This document shows positions 45,318-59,642 of a stretch of DNA of 64,000 nt, piece by piece (the first letter of the stretch is position 1; each line of letters opens with the position of its first letter). The notes beneath the pieces are model-generated. The model had not been told where the DNA came from and did not search any database. It saw nothing but the letters and a program-made list of their open reading frames with translations. The DNA lies in NCBI GenBank assembly GCA_963676835.2, contig CAXXFF010000002.1, forward strand, positions 1,056,001 through 1,120,000. The letters run 5' to 3'. The position numbers and the translations under genes were made by a program. Origin of the DNA: Marispirochaeta sp. GTDB taxonomy: Bacteria > Spirochaetota > Spirochaetia > JC444 > Marispirochaetaceae.

Positions 45318-47663
45318 TTAAAAAAGTTCCAGCTGCTTTCCCAAAACAATCTCATCAAAGTTTGTATTCAGCCAGGGAAGCACCCCGTCTGCAATCGGTT
45401 TTATCTGCTTCTCAATATAATGTGCGTAGTCTATGGGGCCGGTACAGAGTTTTACCGGAACCGGACCTTCCGGGGTAATGAAGTACTCTACGCGGCGAAT
45501 GTTGCGTGTGCCTTCAGGATCCAGCATCCGTGCAGCCTTAACATGGGGCGGTACGTTCTTTACATAGCCTTCTGCTCTTTTGGTAAGTCTGCGGCGGTAA
45601 ATAAGTTTATCATCCCGGCTGCCGCTGTTAACGGCTTCCACCTCGCTGAGAATCCAGCGGGGGATCTCCTCTCCGCTGAAAAAACGGCGAAAGAGTTCAA
45701 ACTGAAACTCCCGGGCAAGCTCGGTCCAGTCGGAGCGGACATATTCCATACCCCGGAACTCAATTTCACCTGTATCCGCGAGCCTTCCGGCATACCGTTT
45801 TCGGGCCCCTTCGCTGCTTCCCCGCATGGGGGGAAGAAAAAAAACATCGTAGTGCTTCTCATATTCCAGTTCCAGATATGATTCAACCCCGTACTCTTCC
45901 CCAAGCAGCTTAGTCAGATATTCATTTACGGCGGACACAATTTGTACTGCAGCTTCATCCGCCCGGGGGATCTCTTCCTGCCTCAGCTGCACAAAAACGG
46001 AGTCGGTGTCACCATAGAGAACCTGGTAGCCCGATTCTCTCAGGCGGGCGGTGCTTGTTTTCAGCACCCATTGTCCGGTGCCGGTAATGGCCGTGGGCAG
46101 CCTGGGGTCGTAGAAGCGGCAGCCAGGGGTGCCCATAACCCCGTAGAAACTGTTCATCAGGATTTTTACCGCCTGACTCAGGGCGGCATCCCCGGCCCGC
46201 TTTGCTTCCGCCCTGCGCTCAAGGAGTTCCGCGATAACCCCGGGGAGAATGCTCCGTTCCCGGTTGAAACTGATTCCCGCCGGAGTATTCCCGGGGTTTT
46301 CGGAAGCAGTAAGCAGGGAGAGAGGATCTACGCAGAAGGTTCTTATAATGGAAGGATAGAGGCTGCGGAAATCGAGAACCACCACATGGTCGTAACGTCC
46401 GGGTTCGGTGGTGAAAACATAACCCCCTGCAGCCTGTTCCGCCGCATGGATGTCCTCTGTATCCGGGGCCGCATAACCCTGACGGTGCATTTTCGGCAGA
46501 TACTGAAACTCAAAGGCCGCCACGGACATGCTCACCCTGTCCAGCCGCAGACCGGTAAGCAGGCTTCGGGTCATGTACTGTTCTGTCAGGACCGTTGCCT
46601 CGAGAATACGGCTTACCAGGCGGCAGTCTTCAAAATTGTAAACCACCAGAGACTGCAGATCCTCCGCGAAGAGCCGCATAATCTCGGCGACCTTATCCTC
46701 ATCGGCTGAAATGGTTTTTCCGGTACCCAGCACTGTATTTGCCACGGTCTCCAGGGAGAAATCCGGAAAAGTGTGGAAGCCTCCCCGCATTGCCTGGGGG
46801 CCGTCCATCACAATCCGTCCCCGTACTTCGGCGGAGCGCATGCCGGACTGCTTCTGAAAACACCTTGCGGGCGATCCGTCCCGAGCAATTCCGAAGCGGA
46901 TTCCCAGCCGTTCGCAGGCTCGGTTGAGCATCTCCAGATCGAAGCCGATTACATTCCATCCGGTGAGAAGATCCGGGTCAAAGCGCTGCACTGCAGCTGC
47001 TGCTCCTTCAAGCATGCTCTTCTCGCTGCTGTATGATACGGGAATAAAGCCTTCTCCCGGCTGTACCCTGTTGTGTTCATCAAGAACATGAACCTCTCCT
47101 GCCTCACTTCCGTCAGAAGCGGTGTAGTGGAGGCCGACGCAGAGGATCTGCATATCCGGACTGGTTTCAATATCCAGTGAAAGGATGGAGAGAACCGGCC
47201 GGTACTCTCCGCTGCGGATCGCCGGATCGGTAATTATGCGCCGGGGGCCTGCGGCCGCCGCGCCGCCCCGGTATTCCAGGCTTCTGCGGATAAAACGCTC
47301 CATAAGAAACCGCTCTTCCGGCCGGATATCCGATTCCAGGGGGCGTATTCCGGAACTGCGAAGGCTGCTTTTCAGGCTGTTCAGCTGGCGCATGCCGCTG
47401 CAGTAGACAGCATACAGAGGGTTGCCGTGAAAATCTGTAAGTTCAACCCTTTTGGTGCGCACCTCATGGCGCTCTAAAAGGTCTTCGCCCCGGGGCAAGT
47501 CATCTTCCCTCAGAAAAAAAAGGGGTTCCTGCCGGGTAAAGCGGAGGGTCAGGGGGCCGGTATCATCAATGCAGTGAAGCTGAATTTCACAGCCGTTTTG
47601 TCTTTCAAGGCACTCTTCGGTGAGAATGTAGCAGTACCTGGGGCTTTCCGCTGGCATATCCAT
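45318..47663 (-). CDS. polB: DNA polymerase II (family B)
   Basis: Exonuclease LDIET, GWNVIGFD; polymerase LDFRSLYPS, KILMNSFYG, YGDTDS, KRYAG. Confidence 0.93.
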   Translation of the reverse strand: MDMPAESPRYCYILTEECLERQNGCEIQLHCIDDTGPLTLRFTRQEPLFFLREDDLPRGEDLLERHEVRTKRVELTDFHGNPLYAVYCSGMRQLNSLKSSLRSSGIRPLESDIRPEERFLMERFIRRSLEYRGGAAAAGPRRIITDPAIRSGEYRPVLSILSLDIETSPDMQILCVGLHYTASDGSEAGEVHVLDEHNRVQPGEGFIPVSYSSEKSMLEGAAAAVQRFDPDLLTGWNVIGFDLEMLNRACERLGIRFGIARDGSPARCFQKQSGMRSAEVRGRIVMDGPQAMRGGFHTFPDFSLETVANTVLGTGKTISADEDKVAEIMRLFAEDLQSLVVYNFEDCRLVSRILEATVLTEQYMTRSLLTGLRLDRVSMSVAAFEFQYLPKMHRQGYAAPDTEDIHAAEQAAGGYVFTTEPGRYDHVVVLDFRSLYPSIIRTFCVDPLSLLTASENPGNTPAGISFNRERSILPGVIAELLERRAEAKRAGDAALSQAVKILMNSFYGVMGTPGCRFYDPRLPTAITGTGQWVLKTSTARLRESGYQVLYGDTDSVFVQLRQEEIPRADEAAVQIVSAVNEYLTKLLGEEYGVESYLELEYEKHYDVFFLPPMRGSSEGARKRYAGRLADTGEIEFRGMEYVRSDWTELAREFQFELFRRFFSGEEIPRWILSEVEAVNSGSRDDKLIYRRRLTKRAEGYVKNVPPHVKAARMLDPEGTRNIRRVEYFITPEGPVPVKLCTGPIDYAHYIEKQIKPIADGVLPWLNTNFDEIVLGKQLELF

Positions 47664-50101: not shown

Positions 50102-52078
50102 CTAGTCGAGACCTTCCAGTTCTTCGATCCAGAGCCTGGCATCCGCATCTGACGGCATGCGCCAGTCTCCACGGGGAGAGAGGGATATGGTTCCCACTTT
50201 GGGGCCGTCGGGAAGACAGGAACGCTTGAACTGCTGGGAGAAGAAACGGCGGTAGAAGCTTCTCAGCCATTTGAGTATTACTTCTCTGGAGTGTACCTCT
50301 GCAAATACGCTGTAGGCCAGGAGAAATACTTTCCGGGGGGCGGTTCCGCAGCGGACGGCATGGTAAAGGAAGAAGTCATGCAGTTCATAGGGGCCGATGG
50401 TATCCTCGGTCTTCTGGGCTATCTCTCCGTTTGCATCCGGGGGCAGCAGCTCCGGCGAAATGGGTGTGTCCACAATATCATGCAGGACAACTGCTGCTTC
50501 TGGAGTCGCCCAGGTTTCCGCCGCATAGCTGACCAGAAACTTCACCAGGGTTTTCGGTACTCCCGTATTAACAGCATACATGGACATATGGTCTCCATTG
50601 TAGGTACACCAGCCCAGAGCGAGTTCCGACAGGTCTCCCGTACCAATGACAATTCCGCCTACCATATTGGATTTGTTCATAAGGTGCATGGTCCGCTGAC
50701 GGGCCTGGACGTTTTCGTAAGCCGTATCTTCCGGGCGTCCGGAGTGGTTCAGATCCTGCAATTGGGTGGTGCAGATATCCCCGATGTTGATGGTTTCAAG
50801 GGGTACTCCCAGGGCCTTACTGAGTTTCTCGACATTCCCCAGGGTTCGGCCGCTGGTTCCGAATCCCGGCATGGTGTAGGCCTTGATACCGGAGATATCA
50901 AGCCCCGCCTCCCGGAAGGCTTCCACGGTAACCAGCAGGGCCAGGGTTGAGTCCAGGCCGCCGGAGAGGCCGATAACTACATTTTTACAGCCGATATGCA
51001 GGAGCCTGCTGGCAAGGCCGGCACTCTGTATTGCAAAAATCTCTCTGCAGCGGGCTTCCAGATCCGCCGAAACCGCCGGAACGAAGGGGTTGCGTGCCAG
51101 TCTTCGGTTCAGTTCCCCCGCAGATACCTGCGGAAGCTTTACAGCCACCTCTATGCGCCGGTAACGTGCTTCTGCAAGGTCCGCTCCCTGGCTGAAGGTG
51201 GTGGAATTAATTCTCTCGTGATTTATAAAATCGATGTCTATATCTGCTGTAAGCAGGGTACCTTCTCTGGAGAAACGTTCGCTCTCGGCTAAAACACCGC
51301 CGTTTTCCGCAATAATGCAATGTCCGCCGAAAACTGTGTCGGTGGTGGATTCACCTACCCCTGCAGAAGCATATACGTAGGCGGCAAGACAGCGGGCGGA
51401 CTGCTGGCGAATCAGTTCTCCCCGGTAGGCGGCCTTGCCGACCAGCTCGTTGCTGGCGGATGGGTTGAAAATTATCTGCGCCCCTGCAGTACTCTGGCTG
51501 CCGCTGGGAGGAGCGGGGGACCAGAGATCTTCACAGATCTCGATACCGAAGGTAATATCCAGGCCTGAATCCGGGGATAAACAGCTGAACAGCAGATCCG
51601 ATCCAAGGGGGATGGAGGTTCCGCCATAACGGATCTCCTCATTTTTAATCCTGCCTCCACCGGCAAACCAGCGGGACTCGTAGAATTCACGGTAGTTGGG
51701 GATAATTATTTTGGGCACAGCCCCATGGATTTTGCCGCCGCCGATAACCAGGGCACAGTTGAGGAGTCTGCCGTTAAATCGCAGCGGAAGTCCTATAATA
51801 AATATGCCCTGTATCTTTTTGGTGGCCTCTGCCAGGTATACCGCAGCGGTTTCCGCCGAGCGTAACAGGGAGTCCTGCTGAAAGAGATCGCTGCAGGTAT
51901 AGCCGGTTATTCCCAGTTCGGGAAACACGGTTATTCCAACCCCTGCTGCTGCACTTTCCTTCATCAGCTCCAGGGTGTTTTCACAGTTGAAAACTACCGC
52001 GCCGGGTTTTACCGGGGGAACCGCGGAGGCTGTACGAATATATCCAAAATCTGCTAATGATTCTTTGATGGCTGCCAT
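50102..52078 (-). CDS. nadE: Glutamine-dependent NAD+ synthetase
   Basis: Nitrilase domain (FPEL, PK, EICEDLW) plus SGGLDS, ENVQAR, GTGDLSE, QFKRSC. Confidence 0.96.
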   Translation of the reverse strand: MAAIKESLADFGYIRTASAVPPVKPGAVVFNCENTLELMKESAAAGVGITVFPELGITGYTCSDLFQQDSLLRSAETAAVYLAEATKKIQGIFIIGLPLRFNGRLLNCALVIGGGKIHGAVPKIIIPNYREFYESRWFAGGGRIKNEEIRYGGTSIPLGSDLLFSCLSPDSGLDITFGIEICEDLWSPAPPSGSQSTAGAQIIFNPSASNELVGKAAYRGELIRQQSARCLAAYVYASAGVGESTTDTVFGGHCIIAENGGVLAESERFSREGTLLTADIDIDFINHERINSTTFSQGADLAEARYRRIEVAVKLPQVSAGELNRRLARNPFVPAVSADLEARCREIFAIQSAGLASRLLHIGCKNVVIGLSGGLDSTLALLVTVEAFREAGLDISGIKAYTMPGFGTSGRTLGNVEKLSKALGVPLETINIGDICTTQLQDLNHSGRPEDTAYENVQARQRTMHLMNKSNMVGGIVIGTGDLSELALGWCTYNGDHMSMYAVNTGVPKTLVKFLVSYAAETWATPEAAVVLHDIVDTPISPELLPPDANGEIAQKTEDTIGPYELHDFFLYHAVRCGTAPRKVFLLAYSVFAEVHSREVILKWLRSFYRRFFSQQFKRSCLPDGPKVGTISLSPRGDWRMPSDADARLWIEELEGLD

Positions 52079-52236
52079 GAATGCATGATAGGATGGTGGG
52101 TGCCGGGAGGTCAAGTTTCCGGAAAGAGACAGATTTATGTGGTACCCTGTGGAGTGTTTCCTTTTTTTCAGACATCTGATAGTCTGTTTGCCAACCTTGA
52201 GTCGGCCTATGGCCGAGTAGCAAAGGAGTCGTATTG

Positions 52237-55200
52237 ATGCAGAACAGGATTTCTCCTGAGAACCTACAATATTTTTTATCTTTATATACCAGCATGTTTA
52301 CAGCCCGGGAAATAGACCGGATTGAAGAGAGTTACACCCAGCGGGGAGAAGCCTTTTTTCATGTTTCCGGCGCGGGACATGAGGCCATAGCTGCACTTGC
52401 GCAGCATCTTACTCCCGAAGACTGGCTTCACTGTCACTATCGGGATAAATCCCTGATGCTTGCCCGGGGCATGGATGCATCCATGTTCTTTCATGCACTC
52501 TTCAATAAAGATGCTTCCCACTCCCGTGGGCGCCAGATGAATGCTCATATGAGTGACCCGGCACTCAACATCCTCAGCCTGGTAGGCCCTGTGGGCAATT
52601 CGGGACTGCAGGCAGCCGGTGTAGCCCAGGCTGTGAAGGATAATGCAGGCAGTCCGGTTGTTCTCTGCTCTCTGGGGGATGGAATGAGCCAGCAGGGGGA
52701 TGTGCTGGAAGCTATTGCCCATTCTGTCCGGGCTGAGCTTCCGGTTCTCTATGTAATTCAGGATAACGGTTTTGCCATATCCACCCGTACCGGCGGCAAT
52801 ACCTTCTACCGTACTCCCGACGGACTGGCAGACAGCTTTTACGGTATCCCCATTACCCATTTCGACGGCCGTAACGCGGTGGAAGCCGACCGGGTTTTTA
52901 AAGAGACGGTTGAAAAGATGCGCAGCGATCGCCGCCCTGCTATTCTTATAATGCAGGTGGAGCGGCTTTCCAGCCATACCAATGCCGATGATCAGCGTGT
53001 TTACAGAAGCGAGGACGAGATTGAAGCAGCCCGCAGTACCGGTGATCCCGTGGCTATTTTGCGGGGACTTCTGCTTGAGGCAGGTGCTTCTGAGGATGAG
53101 TTTGAAGAGAAAGAGGCAGAAATACGCAAGGAGCTCGAACAGGCTGCCAGAGAGAGTCAGCTTGGACCTGAGCCTGCGGCGGTTCACGACGCAGTTAAGC
53201 CCTATCCGGAGAGCCTGAAGGCGGTTGGTGAGATAAGTGCCGTCGACGGTGAGGGTGATCCTCATACAATGATTGAAACCCTGAGGGAAACCCTTTCTAT
53301 GCGGATGGCCGATGATGAGCGGGTTATCCTTTTCGGTGAAGATATTGAAGACCCCAAAGGCGACGTTTTCGGCGTTACCCGGGGTCTTTCGCAAAAATAT
53401 CCCGGCAGGGTGATCAACTCCCCTCTGGCCGAAGCTTCCATTGCGGGAATATCCGGCGGACAGGCTCTGGCGGGAAAACGCCCGGTGGCTTTCCTGCAGT
53501 TTGCCGACTTCCTGCCCATCGCCTTCAACCAGATTATTTCCGAGCTGGGAAGTATGTACTGGAGAACCGACGGCGGCTGGGAGACGCCGGTAATTGTAAT
53601 GATCTCCTGCGGCGGCTATAAGCCCGGCCTGGGACCCTTTCATGCCCAGTCCATGGACGGCGTTGCGGTACATACCCCGGGTGTTGATGTTTTTATGCCC
53701 TCCCGGGCGGATGATGCGGCGGCCCTTCTGAATGCAGCCTTTGCATCGGAGCGGCCAACCCTCTTTTTCTATCCGAAAAATCTGCTGAACAGCCGTGATT
53801 TTGCCACAAAAAAAGATCCTGCCCAGCTGCTGCTCTCTCCCGGTAAAGCCCGGACTGTACGGGAAGGTTCTGATATTACCCTCATCGGCTGGGGAAACAC
53901 GGTGGTGCACTGTACCAGAGCTGCTGAATCCCTTGCCGCGGCCGGTGCTTCTGCGGAGGTTATTGACCTGAGAACCCTTGCTCCCTGGGACAAGGAGGCG
54001 GTTATTGCTTCTGCGTCCAAAACCGGCAAGGTAATCGTTGTTCATGAAGACAACCACAGCGCCGGCATGGGAGCTGAAGTTATCAGTACCATAGCGGAAG
54101 GCTGCAGTACTCCGGTGGAATGCCGCAGAGTAACCCGGGGCGATACCTTTGTTCCCTGTAACTTTGCCAACCAGCTTGAAGTTCTGCCAAGTTACAGCAG
54201 GGTACTTGAGGCTGCAGTGGATATGCTGGGCGGTTCTATTGTCTGGAAGAAAGAGGAAGATGAATCCGGCGAGCTCTATGGTCTTGAAGCTGTGGGCTCC
54301 AGTCCTTCCGATGAGGTTGCCACCATTATTGAATGGTTGGTGAAAGAGGGTGACTCCATTGAGGAAGGTCAGGAAGTTGCCGAACTCGAGGCGGATAAAG
54401 CCATGATCACCCTGTCCAGTCCGGTAGCCGGTGTTATCAGTTCCATCGATGTCCCCGATGGTGAGTCGGTGAATGTCGGTACGGTGATTGCAAAAGTCCG
54501 GCTTCCTCAAGGGTCGGTACGGATCAAACCTATTACCCGGGAAGAGCCGGGCACACCCGAAATCAGCGGCCTGAAAACCGGCCCCGCTGCTGCAGGTCCG
54601 GTGATGCAGACCGGAGCAGTGGCAGCCATTGCCGGTGTCCGCAGTTCTCTTGGCGGCAGATTGGTCTCCAATAAAGAGATTTCTGAACTCTGCCCCACCT
54701 GGAGTGAGGCAGACATAGTAAAGAGAACAGGTATACAGGAGCGTCACTGGGTTGGAGAAGGGGAGAATGCTGTAACCCTTACCACCGATGCCGCTTCGAA
54801 GTTGCTGGATGATATGAACATAGGTGTGGAAGAGATCGATCTGATAATCTGTTCCACCACAACTCCCTTTATGAATACTCCTGCTCTGGCAACCATGGTA
54901 CAGTATGAGCTGAATAAGAAATATGGAGCCGACTGCAGCTGTGCTGCCTACGATATAAATGCCGCCTGTTCAGGCTATGTCTACGGCTTGCAGATTGCCT
55001 ATGACTATCTGGCCCAGCGGCCGGCTGAGAAAGTGCTGGTGCTTACGGCGGATGTACTTTCCGACCGTATAGATACCGCAGATCCTTCCACTGCCCCGGT
55101 ATTCGGCGACGGTGCCAGTGCAAGCCTTGTGGTTGGATCAGGACTGATCGGATCAATAGGTAAACTTGAAGTTAAGCGGCCGGTGCTCTCTGCAAAGGGT

Positions 55201-55584
55201 GAAGACGGATCACTGCTGCGCATTCCGAAAGATCCCTCGGAACCGGTATTTATGGAAGGGCCAGAGGTTTTCCGCAAGGCGGTTTCCGCCATGGCAGAGA
55301 TTCTCAAGGATGCCTGCAAGGTTGCAGGAGTCAGTCCGGACGAGCTCGATCTGGTTGTTCCCCATCAGGCAAACCAGCGGATTATCGATGCGGTACGGCA
55401 GAAGCTCAGGGCGGATAAGAGCAAAGTTTACAGTCTTATTTCCGGCATCGGGAATATCTCCTCTTCAACCATTCCGTTCTGTCTGGAACGGCTGCTTGAA
55501 GAGAAACCGGAAACTGAGCTTCTCGGCCTTACAGCCTTCGGCGGCGGGTTTACCTTTGCCGGCGGAGTGTTGAAGAAAATCTGA
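52237..55584 (+). CDS. Fusion of 2-oxoacid dehydrogenase E1alpha, E1beta, lipoyl domain and beta-ketoacyl-ACP synthase III (FabH-like)
   Basis: GHEA, HYRD, GDG...QDN (ThDP), SHTNADD; GEDI, PLAE, QFADF, FHAQS, IDLRTL.PWD; ELEADKA lipoyl Lys; RTGI.ER, AACSG, FGDGA, PHQAN, GNISS. Confidence 0.93.
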   Translation: MQNRISPENLQYFLSLYTSMFTAREIDRIEESYTQRGEAFFHVSGAGHEAIAALAQHLTPEDWLHCHYRDKSLMLARGMDASMFFHALFNKDASHSRGRQMNAHMSDPALNILSLVGPVGNSGLQAAGVAQAVKDNAGSPVVLCSLGDGMSQQGDVLEAIAHSVRAELPVLYVIQDNGFAISTRTGGNTFYRTPDGLADSFYGIPITHFDGRNAVEADRVFKETVEKMRSDRRPAILIMQVERLSSHTNADDQRVYRSEDEIEAARSTGDPVAILRGLLLEAGASEDEFEEKEAEIRKELEQAARESQLGPEPAAVHDAVKPYPESLKAVGEISAVDGEGDPHTMIETLRETLSMRMADDERVILFGEDIEDPKGDVFGVTRGLSQKYPGRVINSPLAEASIAGISGGQALAGKRPVAFLQFADFLPIAFNQIISELGSMYWRTDGGWETPVIVMISCGGYKPGLGPFHAQSMDGVAVHTPGVDVFMPSRADDAAALLNAAFASERPTLFFYPKNLLNSRDFATKKDPAQLLLSPGKARTVREGSDITLIGWGNTVVHCTRAAESLAAAGASAEVIDLRTLAPWDKEAVIASASKTGKVIVVHEDNHSAGMGAEVISTIAEGCSTPVECRRVTRGDTFVPCNFANQLEVLPSYSRVLEAAVDMLGGSIVWKKEEDESGELYGLEAVGSSPSDEVATIIEWLVKEGDSIEEGQEVAELEADKAMITLSSPVAGVISSIDVPDGESVNVGTVIAKVRLPQGSVRIKPITREEPGTPEISGLKTGPAAAGPVMQTGAVAAIAGVRSSLGGRLVSNKEISELCPTWSEADIVKRTGIQERHWVGEGENAVTLTTDAASKLLDDMNIGVEEIDLIICSTTTPFMNTPALATMVQYELNKKYGADCSCAAYDINAACSGYVYGLQIAYDYLAQRPAEKVLVLTADVLSDRIDTADPSTAPVFGDGASASLVVGSGLIGSIGKLEVKRPVLSAKGEDGSLLRIPKDPSEPVFMEGPEVFRKAVSAMAEILKDACKVAGVSPDELDLVVPHQANQRIIDAVRQKLRADKSKVYSLISGIGNISSSTIPFCLERLLEEKPETELLGLTAFGGGFTFAGGVLKKI

Positions 55585-57426
55585 TTATTCTGAAGCTGCG
55601 GGCTGGAGATTCCGTATTATGCGGATCTCCTGCCTGGTGGCTCTGTGGCGTATTTTGAAGAAAAGTGTTTTGCTGCGTACATCGTAGACCCATCCGTCGC
55701 TGTAGCGCTGAAACTCCGGATCACTCTTCCATGGAATTCCATGCATCTGAATCTGGTCGAAGGGTTCAACATTAAACACCGCAAAATGGTGAATTCCGCC
55801 CTGGGGAAACTGAAATGAAAGCACCGAGGTATTTCCCGGCTGAAACCGTACATTTGCCGCGGTGGTCCACATCCACTCCCGGCCGGCACCGAGGTCGATA
55901 ACCCTGGGTGTATAGGATGACTCCCGGTACATTCTCAACAGATTCTCAAAGGTTTCCGGCTCCAGTACCGAAGCAGATTCCCTGGTGGCAAACTCTGTCA
56001 TTTCGTAGCCCGCAGGCATTCTGCCGTACTCACCGGAGGAGCGGACTGCAGAAAGGAGCAGCCCGTATCCGATGGAGCGGGTAAGGGAGTCTTCGCTTTC
56101 ATGCATCAGTTTCCCTGCCTTGACATTAACCCGGGTATCGCTTCCGTCTGCCAGGTGGATGCCGTAGCTGTCATCACCGGTGGGGCAGATTCTGGGCAGA
56201 AGAATTTCCCGTATAAGAAATCTGATTGCAGGGTTGTCAGTACTTCCCCGGTTCAGCAGGAACTCTCCTGCATTCAAGGCAAGAATCAATGCCCTATCGT
56301 CAGCGGGCTCTTCCAGGATGACTTTCTCGGCGGTCTCTTCCAGAGACTTCAGTGCTGCAGTTGCTTCGGGTGTTCCGGAGGCGATGAAAATTTCCAGCAG
56401 TTCCGGATCGGCAAAGACATCGGGGCTGCCGTCCACCGCAGCAGAAATGGTTTGTATGGTAAAGCTCCGGACTGAATCGCCGAAGGATTTCAGCGGATCA
56501 ACCACGGAACCGAGATAGAGGGCGCTGGTTCGGTCTATAAGCCGTGGACTGCCTTCGGCAAGGCGGTTTCTGGTCTGCAGGTAGGTTCCCCGGTACAGGG
56601 ATTCCAGCAGCATGGCAGACGCGGTGGTCCCTTCTCCGGGGGCATCTGCGGCGTATTCCCAGGAGCCCGCTGCTGCAAGCCAGCGCTCTTTGTTCCATCC
56701 CTGCCAGGCTGTTTCTGCCAGCCGGGCGAGGGCAGACTCGAGGGTATCTTTATTTCCGGGGAAGGGATGTATATCGAACCAGACCCGGATAAGGGATTCA
56801 TCATCTTTGGGATTGAGAAAGCGTACTTCCTGAGGCTCTGCTCTTCTGGGGATTGAAACCCTAGAGTCAGTTACCCGGGTGTAAGGACTGAAGGACGCCA
56901 CACCTCCGGAACTTCCGGTACGGGATGCCCTGAGTATCGGAAGGCCGGTATGGACGGAGGCTTCCGCTCCTGTCCAGGGCAGGCGAATACCGCTGATGGT
57001 CTCATCCTTCACTGCGCTGAAGTCGACACTCATGGTGTAGCCGGCACTGTCTGTATCAGATTCGTTTATGGTAAAGCTTATCCCCGACAGAAAAATAATT
57101 TTTATGGTACTGCTTGTCCGGTCAATTTTTGTTATCGAGGCCTGAGACTCACTTCCGTCGGCATGCACCAGCACTCCTGCGCCGTTTTCGGGAAAATCCA
57201 GAGAAAAGCTGCGGTACTTGAGGGTAAACGAACGGTAGGCTGCACCTTTTCCGGGCAGCAGACCTCCTGCGACCCCTGCTGTCTGCCGGGCGGAAATGCT
57301 CATCTCTCCCAGGGTATATCGTACCGGACGGGTTTCGCCGAATTCCCGGTAGAGAAGACCGCCGATAATGAGAGCATAGACAACAAGCACAAGATAGTAG
57401 GCCGGTTTTACCCTGGTTTCACGCAT
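55585..57426 (-). CDS. Hypothetical membrane-anchored protein
   Basis: 613-aa ORF with one N-terminal TM segment. Confidence 0.7.
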   Translation of the reverse strand: MRETRVKPAYYLVLVVYALIIGGLLYREFGETRPVRYTLGEMSISARQTAGVAGGLLPGKGAAYRSFTLKYRSFSLDFPENGAGVLVHADGSESQASITKIDRTSSTIKIIFLSGISFTINESDTDSAGYTMSVDFSAVKDETISGIRLPWTGAEASVHTGLPILRASRTGSSGGVASFSPYTRVTDSRVSIPRRAEPQEVRFLNPKDDESLIRVWFDIHPFPGNKDTLESALARLAETAWQGWNKERWLAAAGSWEYAADAPGEGTTASAMLLESLYRGTYLQTRNRLAEGSPRLIDRTSALYLGSVVDPLKSFGDSVRSFTIQTISAAVDGSPDVFADPELLEIFIASGTPEATAALKSLEETAEKVILEEPADDRALILALNAGEFLLNRGSTDNPAIRFLIREILLPRICPTGDDSYGIHLADGSDTRVNVKAGKLMHESEDSLTRSIGYGLLLSAVRSSGEYGRMPAGYEMTEFATRESASVLEPETFENLLRMYRESSYTPRVIDLGAGREWMWTTAANVRFQPGNTSVLSFQFPQGGIHHFAVFNVEPFDQIQMHGIPWKSDPEFQRYSDGWVYDVRSKTLFFKIRHRATRQEIRIIRNLQPAASE

Positions 57427-57470: not shown

Positions 57471-59642
57471 TTATTTATCCCGTGAGCCGTTGAGCAGCTG
57501 GTAGGTGAAGAAGAGCCGGGCAAGGGATGTGGATACCGTCTGTAAATCAGCAGGTTCCCTGCTGAGAGAGACGGCCTCCGGAAGGTCACTCAGGCCGAAT
57601 TCCTTGAGAACCCTGCTGCACCAGCTTACCAGTTTTCCGTGTTCTGCCCGGAGACAGAGTTCCTTAAGCTGCTCCGCCTGATCGAAGAAGGGCTGGAAGG
57701 AGCGGGCTTCTTCCATTATCAGTCTGAGACCGGCACCGGATTCACCGTTTTCCCTGCTGTAGATCCAGTCCAGTCTGGGGTTGTATTCATCCAGTGCTGC
57801 TGCCAGGGAGAGGATATTCTGCTGATGATATACACCACGTTCTGCAGGCACAATCTGAAACAGCCTGCTCAGGTACCGTGTCCGTTCTCCGGCTACCGAA
57901 AGAGCAACCATAATATCGAGAATAGCCCGGGTCGGGTGACCGGGAATGCTGAGTACTTTTTCGAGCTCCTCCGGGTTTGATGGATTTCCTGTCCGGGCCA
58001 GAGACTTGGCAGCAGCTGCAGATATCCTGGGATCCTTGCTGGAAAAGAGCCGGTTCAAAGCATCAACTCCGGCACTGTCCGGATAGGCTCCCAGGGCAAA
58101 AATCGCACTTTGCTGCTGGGGTGACTCTCGGTTTTCCGCTTCCCTGATAATAAGGGGAAGCAGTCCCGGGCGGGGATTGGTAAAAAGGGATATAAGAATC
58201 TGCTCTTTTTCCGGGGCAATGGGGTTGTCCAGTATCTGCCGCAACTGGGGTTCCGCGTGGGGGGTGGGCGCGTAGTTCAGTGCGGTGAGGATTGTCTGCC
58301 GCTTTACCGGGTTATCGGTAAGGTGGAAGTTGTATATATCCATAAAGGTTTTAAAGTTTCTCGGAGAGAAGATAATGTTCGCGGTTTCTCTCATCCCCAG
58401 GCTGCCGTAATCCCGCACCGAAAGAACCAGAATCAGTGAAAGCCCGCAGTAGGCGGCCCCGGCAAAAAAGGTGAGGGTATACGAGGAGCCTACAGGCAGG
58501 GATATCTTCTCATTCAGGTCGATCAGGATACCGCCAATGAGGCCGGTGAGAAAGGCAAAGAGGGCAGTGAGAAAGTTGAGGAGCGACATGAAGCTGATCT
58601 TGTCGTGGGAGGGAATCACATTAAGCACCAGCCGGGCAACCAGCTGGTAGGTGGCGGCCTGCAGAAAAGTTGTTGCAAAACCGAGGAGAAGAAAAACTCC
58701 CAGGGGAGAATTGTTCAGAATACCCCAGAGCAGGAAGGTAATGCCCTGGCCGATAAATGCTGCCAAAAGCAGGGGCTTTGAGCCTATGCTGTCCATAATG
58801 GGGCGCAGAAAAAGGCCGCTTACCATCATGCCGAAGGTTCCCACCACGGAGAAGAGAAAAACCATGTTCTGGGGGTAATCGGCAACCACCCGCAGAAAAG
58901 GAACAGCAAAACCGATAAGAACCGCCGCAGAGAGGCTGAAGCAGCGGATAAGAATAACCAGAATCTGTTCCCTGTTTTTTACCGCCCGGGCAAAAACCTT
59001 GATAAGGCTGTTTCCCTTCTGGTAGCGGCTCTTTTCTCTGAAAGGTATCTTCATTAAAAAGAGGGCTGCAATGGTATTGGCGAATATACCCAGGCCGATA
59101 AGAATCAGCAGACCGTTGAGGTTGTTGAAATAGGCGAAGGAGGTAAGACCGTAGCTGAGCAGCTGGCTGACCAGACGGGCGGACTGGTTGCTGATAAAAA
59201 GCTGGGCGACAAAGCGTCCCCTTGTTTCGGTGGTTACCAGCATCTGCTGTACCGGTTCCGCCATGGAGGCGCCTATTATACGGAAAATACAGAATACCGC
59301 GTAGACTGCCAGGATGATTGCAACAGCCGTCTGCCCCCGGGTGAAGAGAACCAGAAAATAGAAAAGACTGGCGGCTCCCCGGAACATCCAGGATGCGTAA
59401 AACATCTTGTTCAGGTTGATTTCATTGCTTATACGGGGAAGGATCAGCACCACCAGCCCTGCAATATGAACGGCGGAAGAAATAAAGCCCAGCTCGGTGT
59501 TGGTGGGATTGAACTGCAGCGCCAGCAGATAAATGATGGTTTCCGCAAGGAATCCGTATCCGAGGCCGTTGAATAGTGCATGTCCCAGCATAAGCCGGGA
59601 GCCCCGCTCCCGCTCTTCCCGGGTAAGGAAATCAGTTATCAT
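57471..59642 (-). CDS. MFS transporter with C-terminal HEAT-like repeats
   Basis: About 12 TM segments, then AIFALG and AAAKSLARTG helical repeats. Confidence 0.8.
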   Translation of the reverse strand: MITDFLTREERERGSRLMLGHALFNGLGYGFLAETIIYLLALQFNPTNTELGFISSAVHIAGLVVLILPRISNEINLNKMFYASWMFRGAASLFYFLVLFTRGQTAVAIILAVYAVFCIFRIIGASMAEPVQQMLVTTETRGRFVAQLFISNQSARLVSQLLSYGLTSFAYFNNLNGLLILIGLGIFANTIAALFLMKIPFREKSRYQKGNSLIKVFARAVKNREQILVILIRCFSLSAAVLIGFAVPFLRVVADYPQNMVFLFSVVGTFGMMVSGLFLRPIMDSIGSKPLLLAAFIGQGITFLLWGILNNSPLGVFLLLGFATTFLQAATYQLVARLVLNVIPSHDKISFMSLLNFLTALFAFLTGLIGGILIDLNEKISLPVGSSYTLTFFAGAAYCGLSLILVLSVRDYGSLGMRETANIIFSPRNFKTFMDIYNFHLTDNPVKRQTILTALNYAPTPHAEPQLRQILDNPIAPEKEQILISLFTNPRPGLLPLIIREAENRESPQQQSAIFALGAYPDSAGVDALNRLFSSKDPRISAAAAKSLARTGNPSNPEELEKVLSIPGHPTRAILDIMVALSVAGERTRYLSRLFQIVPAERGVYHQQNILSLAAALDEYNPRLDWIYSRENGESGAGLRLIMEEARSFQPFFDQAEQLKELCLRAEHGKLVSWCSRVLKEFGLSDLPEAVSLSREPADLQTVSTSLARLFFTYQLLNGSRDK

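Follow-up and report, generated by a model that had tools for sequence, protein, structure and literature searches.

In the textbook account, type II fatty-acid synthesis is primed by an acyl-coenzyme A (acyl-CoA) supplied by a multi-subunit dehydrogenase. The standard route, on record for Staphylococcus aureus and Chlamydia trachomatis (PMC8524195, PMC6167442), leads from the branched-chain 2-oxoacid dehydrogenase complex (Bkd) through acyl-CoA to FabH, and a paper on Akkermansia has the same Bkd-FabH route only (PMC9328018). A stretch of 64,000 nucleotides from Marispirochaeta sp. (contig CAXXFF010000002.1, positions 1,056,001–1,120,000; "the window") contains a gene that encodes in one chain the E1α and E1β parts of such a dehydrogenase, a lipoyl domain, and a FabH-fold (KAS III) domain. 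We put at about 0.6 the probability that this fusion protein is a self-contained chain-starting enzyme, in which the acyl group would pass directly from the lipoyl arm to the active site cysteine, Cys911, for condensation with malonyl-acyl carrier protein (malonyl-ACP).

The Bkd complex acting with FabH has a branched-chain-type thiamine diphosphate (ThDP)-dependent E1, a lipoyl arm, and a FabH-fold enzyme with a Cys-His-Asn triad, and the net result is likely to be the same; the fusion differs in that it is one chain without an E2 core, an E3-binding domain, or the Trp32 and Arg151 residues of FabH, and would probably bypass the acyl-CoA pool. The nearest precedent is provided by the QncN/QncL/QncM and SclQ1-4 systems of Streptomyces (PMC6335953), in which a pyruvate dehydrogenase (PDH)-like E1 and a lipoyl arm load an acyl group, glycolyl, onto a carrier protein, but which keep an E2-type acyltransferase, use a ketose phosphate, are encoded by several genes, and have no fused KAS III. 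The fusion, with no acyltransferase core, ACP, or cluster, is not a cassette of this type, although two relatives (P0319 and P0305) and two Streptomyces plasmid loci (L134 and L135) described below are. MxnB and CorB (PMC5724707, PMC5506619) have the FabH fold and the Cys-His-Asn triad and are acylated from a carrier protein, not from free CoA, but they are stand-alone enzymes whose donor is an ACP-bound polyketide chain; their similarity to the fused KAS III is weak (4v2p, E = 1e-20, and 4yuc, E = 2e-17, as compared with 5e-51 for FabH). Actinobacterial OdhA/KGD (bioRxiv 2023.02.23.529587) is another fused 2-oxoacid dehydrogenase for which the components it lacks are supplied in trans, but in OdhA an E2 core is fused to a 2-oxoglutarate E1, succinyl-CoA is made, and there is no KAS III. 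All-in-one E1α-E1β-lipoyl-E2 proteins (P0300, P0303, P0312, P0275, and L091), which are uncharacterized as far as found, have the same E1-lipoyl unit and are nearest on the E1 tree but end in an E2 core, where the fusion ends in KAS III. The fusion would work like a branched-chain dehydrogenase plus FabH but, having neither an E2 nor the CoA-adenine site, does not belong to either as defined. The enzyme is real, widespread, and apparently uncharacterized; full-text searches of the open-license PMC and bioRxiv literature, which leaves out most subscription journals, for its architecture, mechanism, precedents, or named hosts brought up no title or abstract opening that describes it.

Domain Architecture of the Fusion Protein

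The reading frame is open from TTG 52234, in frame with ATG 52237, to the TGA that ends at 55584, and encodes 1115 residues counted from the ATG. Pfam identifies six domains: E1_dh (E = 6e-42), Transket_pyr, and Transketolase_C, with the limits given in Table 1, followed by Biotin_lipoyl (residues 695–753, E = 1e-18), ACP_syn_III (residues 905–967), and ACP_syn_III_C (residues 1028–1113). An earlier note, made from the sequence of the window without database searches, had described a single uninterrupted open reading frame (ORF) with E1α, E1β, lipoyl, and KAS III parts, and this description is borne out by the stop-free frame, the Pfam domains, and the presence of every motif that it quoted (GDG at 147–149 with Asn177, EADKA at 718–722, AACSG at 909–913, PHQAN at 1042–1046, and GNISS at 1072–1076). 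It was also right that the fusion has no E2 core and the window no E2 or E3 gene: neither PF00198 (E2 core) nor PF02817 (E3-binding) has a match in the fusion protein or the window, and all E2-core, E3, and E3-binding matches in a genome-wide profile search of the host lie outside the 64 kb. A dedicated E2 with a catalytic core and an E3-binding domain, as in the branched-chain complex, is lacking. The AlphaFold2 model, computed from a 139-sequence alignment, has a mean pLDDT of 93.1 and a pTM of 0.75, with residues 785–792 as its sole disordered stretch, and its top Foldseek matches are FabH (2ebd) and the Thermus branched-chain E1β (1um9).

Apart from this protein itself, the 120 matches listed comprise 118 with an identical set of six Pfam domains (54–74% identity) and a single 796-residue piece without KAS III. 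The fusion is intact, full-length, and stop-free in all seven genomes of the order, including the host. These copies, together with the 118 of the 119 other homologues listed, rule out a sequencing or assembly artifact, and the invariant catalytic residues rule out a chance fusion or a pseudogene. Over the whole gene, one public contig also shows 0 differences and 0 gaps, but it possibly comes from the same source DNA and is hence not independent.

Loss of the CoA-adenine Clamp in the KAS III Domain

The C-terminal domain belongs to the KAS III fold family (NF006829, 259.5 bits with a cut-off of 249; Foldseek target TM 0.93 against FabH 2ebd) and has the Cys-His-Asn triad, which is present in 190/190 fused domains and in 54 of 55 divergent representatives. 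Its score with the canonical FabH model TIGR00747 is 231 bits, under the cut-off of 292, and it is only 31% identical to the FabH of the host. In FabH, the adenine of CoA stacks between Trp32 and Arg151 and forms hydrogen bonds with Thr28 (PMC4606726). The fusion lacks this canonical acyl-CoA-primed site, having Asp826, Pro950, and Trp822, respectively, at these positions.

Equivalent positions were counted from invariant anchors, e.g. Gly38, in 190 rows that represent 164 distinct fused domains. Position 32 is Asp in 144 of the distinct domains, Glu in 14, Gly in five, and Lys in one; neither Trp at position 32 nor Arg at position 151 occurs in any of them. In contrast, Trp32, Arg151, and Thr28 are all kept in 31/31 stand-alone spirochete FabH, a control set composed of the best-scoring Pfam matches and the host enzyme that leans to canonical enzymes. 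In a paired control of 21 genomes (the host and 20 of the 42 searched), Trp32 is present in 21 and Arg151 in 16 of the stand-alone FabH, whereas both residues are absent from all 21 fused domains. Residues on the pantetheine/ACP side are mostly kept: Arg36 in 150/164 domains and the Asn247 and Arg249 positions in 190/190. The flap consists of 11 residues in 146/164 fused domains, including the present one (11 versus about 24), as compared with 22–25 in 29 of the 31 stand-alone enzymes. MAFFT, by opening gaps, had aligned Trp822 with Trp32, an equivalence that is ruled out by counting from Gly38 and by the helix position in the model, in which Asp826 is in the helix that carries Trp32 and Trp822 is in the preceding loop. 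Trp822 is at the Thr28 position, one turn before that of Trp32; it is kept in 149/164 of the closer homologues and varies among the divergent ones. The Phe87 position is Thr in 175/190 rows, which presumably makes for a roomier acyl pocket. A search of the review PMC10054515 turned up no role for Phe87 or Thr87.

In a tree of 18 fused KAS III domains and 26 stand-alone FabH, the two sets are on opposite sides of one branch (SH-aLRT 99), and two fusions that keep Trp32 branch closest to stand-alone FabH. These earliest-branching fusions, P0285 (WP_218080544.1) and P0284, have near-canonical FabH scores. Across the family, the CoA-adenine clamp has been lost and the triad retained, which favors direct transfer from the lipoyl arm to the cysteine.

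The E1 and Lipoyl Domains

The E1 part has the characteristics of an α2β2-type ThDP-dependent E1, namely three E1 domains, a GDG..N motif, a cofactor-activating Glu, and a catalytic His; Gly147, Gly149, Asn177, His247, Glu399, and His469 are each conserved in 139/139 aligned sequences. The best solved-structure matches of E1α are the branched-chain E1s of Thermus (1um9) and human (1dtw), and E1β, too, has branched-chain enzymes as its best solved matches. The GRQM motif and HxxxDD loop place the E1 part nearer to branched-chain E1 than to the E1 of PDH; the GRQM motif is common to the fusion and branched-chain E1, whereas the PdhA of the host has GKGGSMH there, and the E1 part scores below every NCBIfam PDH cut-off. 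The E1 looks to be of the branched-chain type. Labels in the source records, among them "2-oxoisovalerate dehydrogenase E1 component," are annotations and not tests of substrate. Given the proposed mechanism, a branched-chain substrate is somewhat more likely than not.

The lipoyl domain has the Biotin_lipoyl fold and a lysine in a DKA-type, not an MKM, hairpin (Asp720 130/139, Lys721 139/139, and Ala722 130/139). The Ala/Pro linker that the earlier note placed behind it is real but shorter than supposed: flexible Gly/Ala/Pro sequence is limited to residues ~780–795, and residues 763–779 form a conserved, ordered segment. The pLDDT of this block is 79–95 in the full-length model and 48–64 in a model without E1; the segment, which needs E1 in the model to be ordered, probably fastens the lipoyl domain to E1β, as a predicted pairing. 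Modeled as a single chain, residues 676–1115 have a pTM of 0.73, about the value expected of KAS III alone, which speaks neither for nor against docking of the lipoyl domain on KAS III.

Domains That Occupy the E2 Position in Relatives

Twenty-four relatives of unusual length or match range were scanned for their domain content. Twelve have an E2 core after the E1-lipoyl unit, followed in P0319 by an ACP and in P0305 (2895 residues) by ACP, ketosynthase, methyltransferase, condensation, and adenylation domains. A thioesterase takes this place in P0273, and in P0253 (1942 residues) KAS III is followed by a ketoreductase, an ACP, and an unassigned tail. P0272 ends in a possible GNAT domain, a label to be read as a lead only (Atlas score 0.85, no Pfam or NCBIfam match). 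The remaining nine end after E1 or the lipoyl domain, are fragments, or contain unrelated domains. The DHR motif of E2 is present in 12 of the 13 E2-bearing relatives checked. Because relatives carry the same E1-lipoyl unit with an E2 core or another acyl-consuming domain at this point, KAS III is considered to fill the E2 slot.

Two Streptomyces plasmids (L134:11941-18474 in NZ_CP061282.1 and L135:9941-16466 in NZ_CP109590.1) have an E1α/β gene and then a polyketide synthase-nonribosomal peptide synthetase (PKS-NRPS) gene that starts with lipoyl, E2, ACP, and ketosynthase domains. The clusters adjoin pabB, chorismate mutase, prephenate dehydrogenase, and methyltransferase genes and were read as a 2-oxoacid loading module.

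Trees of E1 were made with FastTree from 88 rows and with IQ-TREE in quick mode from 40 of those. The E1-lipoyl-E2 family encloses the KAS III forms on these trees: the KAS III forms make up a group (SH-aLRT 90) whose sister is formed by two E2 forms (99), and another E2 clade lies outside both. Nested among the KAS III forms are two E2 forms, the thioesterase form, and the GNAT-like form. Approximately unbiased tests, with groups defined by domain content but after the first tree was seen, reject a single KAS III clade (p = 5e-11) and a single E2 clade (p = 4e-20); therefore the last domain has been swapped more than once. With host E1s as the outgroup, the simplest order of events would be E2 first and KAS III later, an order that is not proven, given a quick tree, long outgroup branches, and one key branch at 90. 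The chances appear evenly balanced that the E1α-E1β-lipoyl unit is a portable CoA-free acyl-loading module whose unloading domain (E2 core, KAS III, thioesterase, GNAT-like, PKS/NRPS) has been swapped repeatedly. Acyl-dihydrolipoamide would then be a third direct biosynthetic acyl donor beside acyl-CoA and acyl-ACP, and the KAS III version of the module, present in at least six phyla, would prime fatty-acid synthesis from the lipoyl arm.

Distribution of the Fusion and Gene Content of Its Carriers

In 71 of 77 genome loci, the gene runs from E1 to KAS III in one frame; three meet a contig end first, one has an assembly gap, one has a frameshift, and one has an E2 core in place of KAS III. The candidate split forms proved to be the assembly gap, which covers the lipoyl domain (L032), and the frameshift, which is inside Transketolase_C (L087), and 120 shorter matches considered as split genes are mostly fragments on short contigs. 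Neither a stop nor a frameshift separates the domains of the present gene, and no true split form was found among the homologues, two outcomes in line with the earlier note. A few KAS III-only matches on long contigs were seen (P0214 and P0216).

The 150 best-matching representatives at 50% identity yielded 38 full-length fusions among the 145 examined, with P0384 left out for want of a KAS III domain. Within the phylum, the fusion was matched in 6/251 sampled genomes. Record titles of the fusion loci include Spirochaetota, Planctomycetota, Verrucomicrobiota, Armatimonadota, Sumerlaeota, Thermoleophilia, and Proteobacteria, and named carriers include Spirochaeta thermophila (AEJ62280.1, a cultured thermophile), Rarispira pelagica, Marinobacter halodurans, Ca. 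Accumulibacter, and the cyanobacterium Anthocerotibacter panamensis (P0285). The nearest named relative is a Marispirochaeta sp. protein with 93% identity, which suggests that the host is a spirochete of free-living type in or close to this genus. None of 1077 matching plasmid records covers 80% of the fusion protein.

The genome of the host (97.3% complete) contains all of the genes for which the earlier note had suggested a search, namely a stand-alone fabH, E2, E3, and lipoylation genes. An ordinary fabH heads the fab cluster (C3:56803-57798), each of three E2 cores is in an operon with its own E1, lipoyl domain, and E3, and there are lipB-lipA and two LplA-like genes (names except lipA read by eye). 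Among 42 other carriers, an E3 match is present in 41 (39 over the cut-off) and another KAS III-family match in 39; a LipA match was found in 49 of 50 carrier entries (47 over the cut-off), with at least one genome entered twice. Because partners were counted in carriers only and kin are not independent, these counts indicate compatibility, not dependence.

The host also encodes a 724-residue fused E1α/β protein (C2:1893808-1895982), whose gene has transketolase-like and transporter genes but no E2 gene around it, and an 1833-residue ORF with a biotin/lipoyl domain (C3:51041-56542, L008), divergent from fabH, that is by eye like a single-chain acetyl-CoA carboxylase.

Proposed Mechanism and Alternatives

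In the proposed mechanism, the E1 part would decarboxylate a 2-oxoacid with ThDP (the motifs and nearest structures suggest a branched-chain compound of Val/Leu/Ile metabolism as the most likely substrate) and would reductively acylate lipoyl-Lys721 on the same chain by standard E1 chemistry, the lipoyl group itself presumably being attached by host LipB/LipA or LplA. The lipoyl arm would pass the acyl group to Cys911 by thioester exchange with no acyl-CoA intermediate, KAS III would use it in a condensation with malonyl-ACP whose product, 3-oxoacyl-ACP, enters type II fatty-acid synthesis, and a host E3 would reoxidize the arm in trans. The fusion would work beside ordinary FabH as a dedicated, probably branched, primer route. 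The lipoyl-to-cysteine transfer was the central idea of the earlier note; the presence of KAS III in the E2 slot of sister architectures and the loss of the clamp favor it, but it keeps the standing of a proposal, with E2 cores in the host and all 42 other carriers searched and a product that is not fixed.

Several observations weigh against this mechanism. An E2 core, which could make acyl-CoA in trans, is present in the host and in 42/42 other carriers. Arg151 is also missing from five of the 21 paired stand-alone FabH, all from Planctomycetes (L141–L145, with Thr, Met, Lys, Lys, and Glu at this position and Trp32 retained), so that the loss of Arg151 alone does not exclude CoA use and Trp32 is therefore the telling residue. 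Among the 55 divergent representatives, Trp32 is found in two and Arg151 in one, with both in none, and Trp822 might stack an adenine. The Lys214 position, which we take to be the ACP-docking site of FabH, is mostly Gln, Leu, or Val in the family. There is no E3-binding domain, and recruitment of E3 by the fusion is unexplained. The His and Asn residues of KAS III are needed for the condensation half-reaction (PMC5724707), but the triad is no proof of decarboxylative condensation because MxnB and CorB keep it and yet join two carrier-bound chains (PMC5724707, PMC5506619). No recurrent ACP, fab, E2, or E3 neighbor was found in 78 loci, and it is the missing ACP and fab neighbors that count here. 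The product may be a membrane branched-chain lipid or a specialized metabolite, and no link between the gene and a lipid profile was found in the literature looked at. A universal role in branched lipids is weakened because several named carriers, Marinobacter halodurans, Ca. Accumulibacter, and the cyanobacterium, belong to groups that we take to be mainly straight-chain. Salinispira pacifica has 11.7% iso-C15:0 and 4.3% anteiso-C15:0 (PMC4511686, supplement 2), and no fusion protein from this species is among the named matches; the literature looked at, including the part of PMC11129491 that was covered, yielded no usable fatty-acid profile of a named carrier.

The E2 cores of the carriers keep a CoA-dependent alternative alive, in which fusion amounts to co-localization only: the E2 core of another complex would make acyl-CoA with the acyl group carried by the fused lipoyl domain, and the KAS III domain of the fusion would then use this acyl-CoA as FabH does. 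The retention of Arg36, Asn247, and Arg249, the five Planctomycete enzymes without Arg151, and the possible substitution of Trp822 for Trp32 are all consistent with this, as is the presence of at least one E2 core in each of the 42 carriers and of three in the host. We nevertheless consider it improbable, since an acidic residue is at the Trp32 position in 158/164 fused domains, Trp32 is retained by 21/21 stand-alone FabH in the paired genomes, each of the three E2 genes of the host belongs to an operon that also supplies its E1, lipoyl domain, and E3, and no E2 gene is a conserved neighbor of the fusion. A transacylase role for KAS III, by which the acyl group would go from the lipoyl arm through Cys911 to holo-ACP (or CoA), as in E2, to be extended by FabF or free FabH, is also unlikely. 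The invariance of the condensation residues His and Asn (190/190) and the ketoreductase and ACP that follow KAS III in P0253, implying a 3-oxoacyl product, argue against it, and its CoA version is a poor fit with the lost adenine clamp; on the other side are the location of KAS III in the E2 slot, the relatives that load carriers by E2-ACP, the altered Lys214 position, and QncN/QncL/QncM, which load ACP from a lipoyl arm (PMC6335953).

Direct hand-over from the lipoyl arm to the cysteine could also serve a specialized product (a signal lipid, a pyrone, or an N-acyl compound) in place of bulk membrane fatty acids; the 2-oxoacid would then be non-branched or aromatic, and the extender would be malonyl-CoA or a dedicated carrier. 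The fusion does look accessory in that 39/42 carriers hold another KAS III-family match, its distribution in the phylum is patchy, relatives are wired into PKS/NRPS lines, and Thr at position 87 suggests, if its presumed role is correct, a roomier pocket; but there is no biosynthetic cluster around the gene here or in 77 loci, and its intact state in 7/7 genomes of the order looks like housekeeping in that lineage. Such a role seems quite doubtful.

If the mechanism with direct transfer to Cys911 is correct, priming of KAS III by a lipoyl arm would be a new way to initiate chains, in which the shared acyl-CoA pool is bypassed and the primer is fixed at the E1 step. It would mean that a lipoyl arm is able to acylate a thiolase-fold cysteine, a family now labeled by one domain only would be reassigned, and the gene would be a one-gene part for branched-chain fatty acids.

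Gene Features and Neighboring Genes

The features of the gene are listed in Table 1. A scan for promoters and terminators gave sites no commoner than in shuffled sequences (2 versus 2.4 and 5 versus 4.2, respectively).

Table 1. Features of the fusion gene and its product (window positions)
Feature	Position	Strand	Details
Shine-Dalgarno-like AAAGGAG	52222..52228	+	8 nt 5' of ATG 52237; putative, read from sequence
E1α-E1β-lipoyl-KAS III fusion ORF (P0001)	52237..55584	+	1115 aa, no internal stop
E1α (E1_dh, aa 18–313)	52288..53175	+	GDG147..N177 ThDP/Mg motif; H247 loop HTNADD; GRQM 98–101
E1β (Transket_pyr 344–518, Transketolase_C 536–647)	53266..54225	+	E399, H469 invariant
Lipoyl domain, aa 680–755	54274..54501	+	Lipoyl-lysine K721 (54397–54399) in EADKA; GSSPSDE loop conserved in family
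Conserved segment, aa 763–779	54523..54573	+	K764, T767, E769, G772, P774; from conservation and model order
Flexible Gly/Ala/Pro linker, aa 780–795	54574..54621	+	pLDDT < 50 at 785–792
KAS III (FabH-fold) domain, aa 796–1115	54622..55581	+	C911 (54967–69), H1043 (55363–65), N1073 (55453–55)
D826 at Trp32 position	54712–14	+	
P950 at Arg151 position	55084–86	+	

Gene neighborhoods of the fusion are conserved among kin only. The commonest neighbors in the 78 loci are aconitase-like (31) and NeuB-like (26) genes, both named by eye, and a short-chain dehydrogenase gene (22). The latter (L034:5114-5965 and 21 other loci) is on the same strand after the fusion, nearly always in spirochete kin, and is absent from the window; its best NCBIfam match is a mycolate reductase, far under the cut-off. 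Locus L133:3042-6671 (G175) encodes a complete 1209-residue fusion with long Gly/Ala inserts, with an acyltransferase-like ORF (by eye) ~1.9 kb downstream, and genome G285 has two long KAS III-bearing frames of 1114 and 1148 residues (C90:13708 and C567:7125), possibly two fusions.

In the window, a glutamine-dependent NAD synthetase gene (50102-52114, minus strand) is divergent from the fusion across a gap of ~120 bp and is near the fusion also in L020, L021, and L023. On the other side, the stop codon of a convergent 613-residue ORF (55585-57426, minus strand) abuts that of the fusion; this ORF has no Pfam or NCBIfam match and keeps its place beside the fusion in three close relatives. Farther out on the minus strand are a gene in which a major facilitator superfamily transporter domain is joined to HEAT repeats (57471-59642) and, in this spirochete, a gene for a family B, Pol II-like DNA polymerase (45318-47663).

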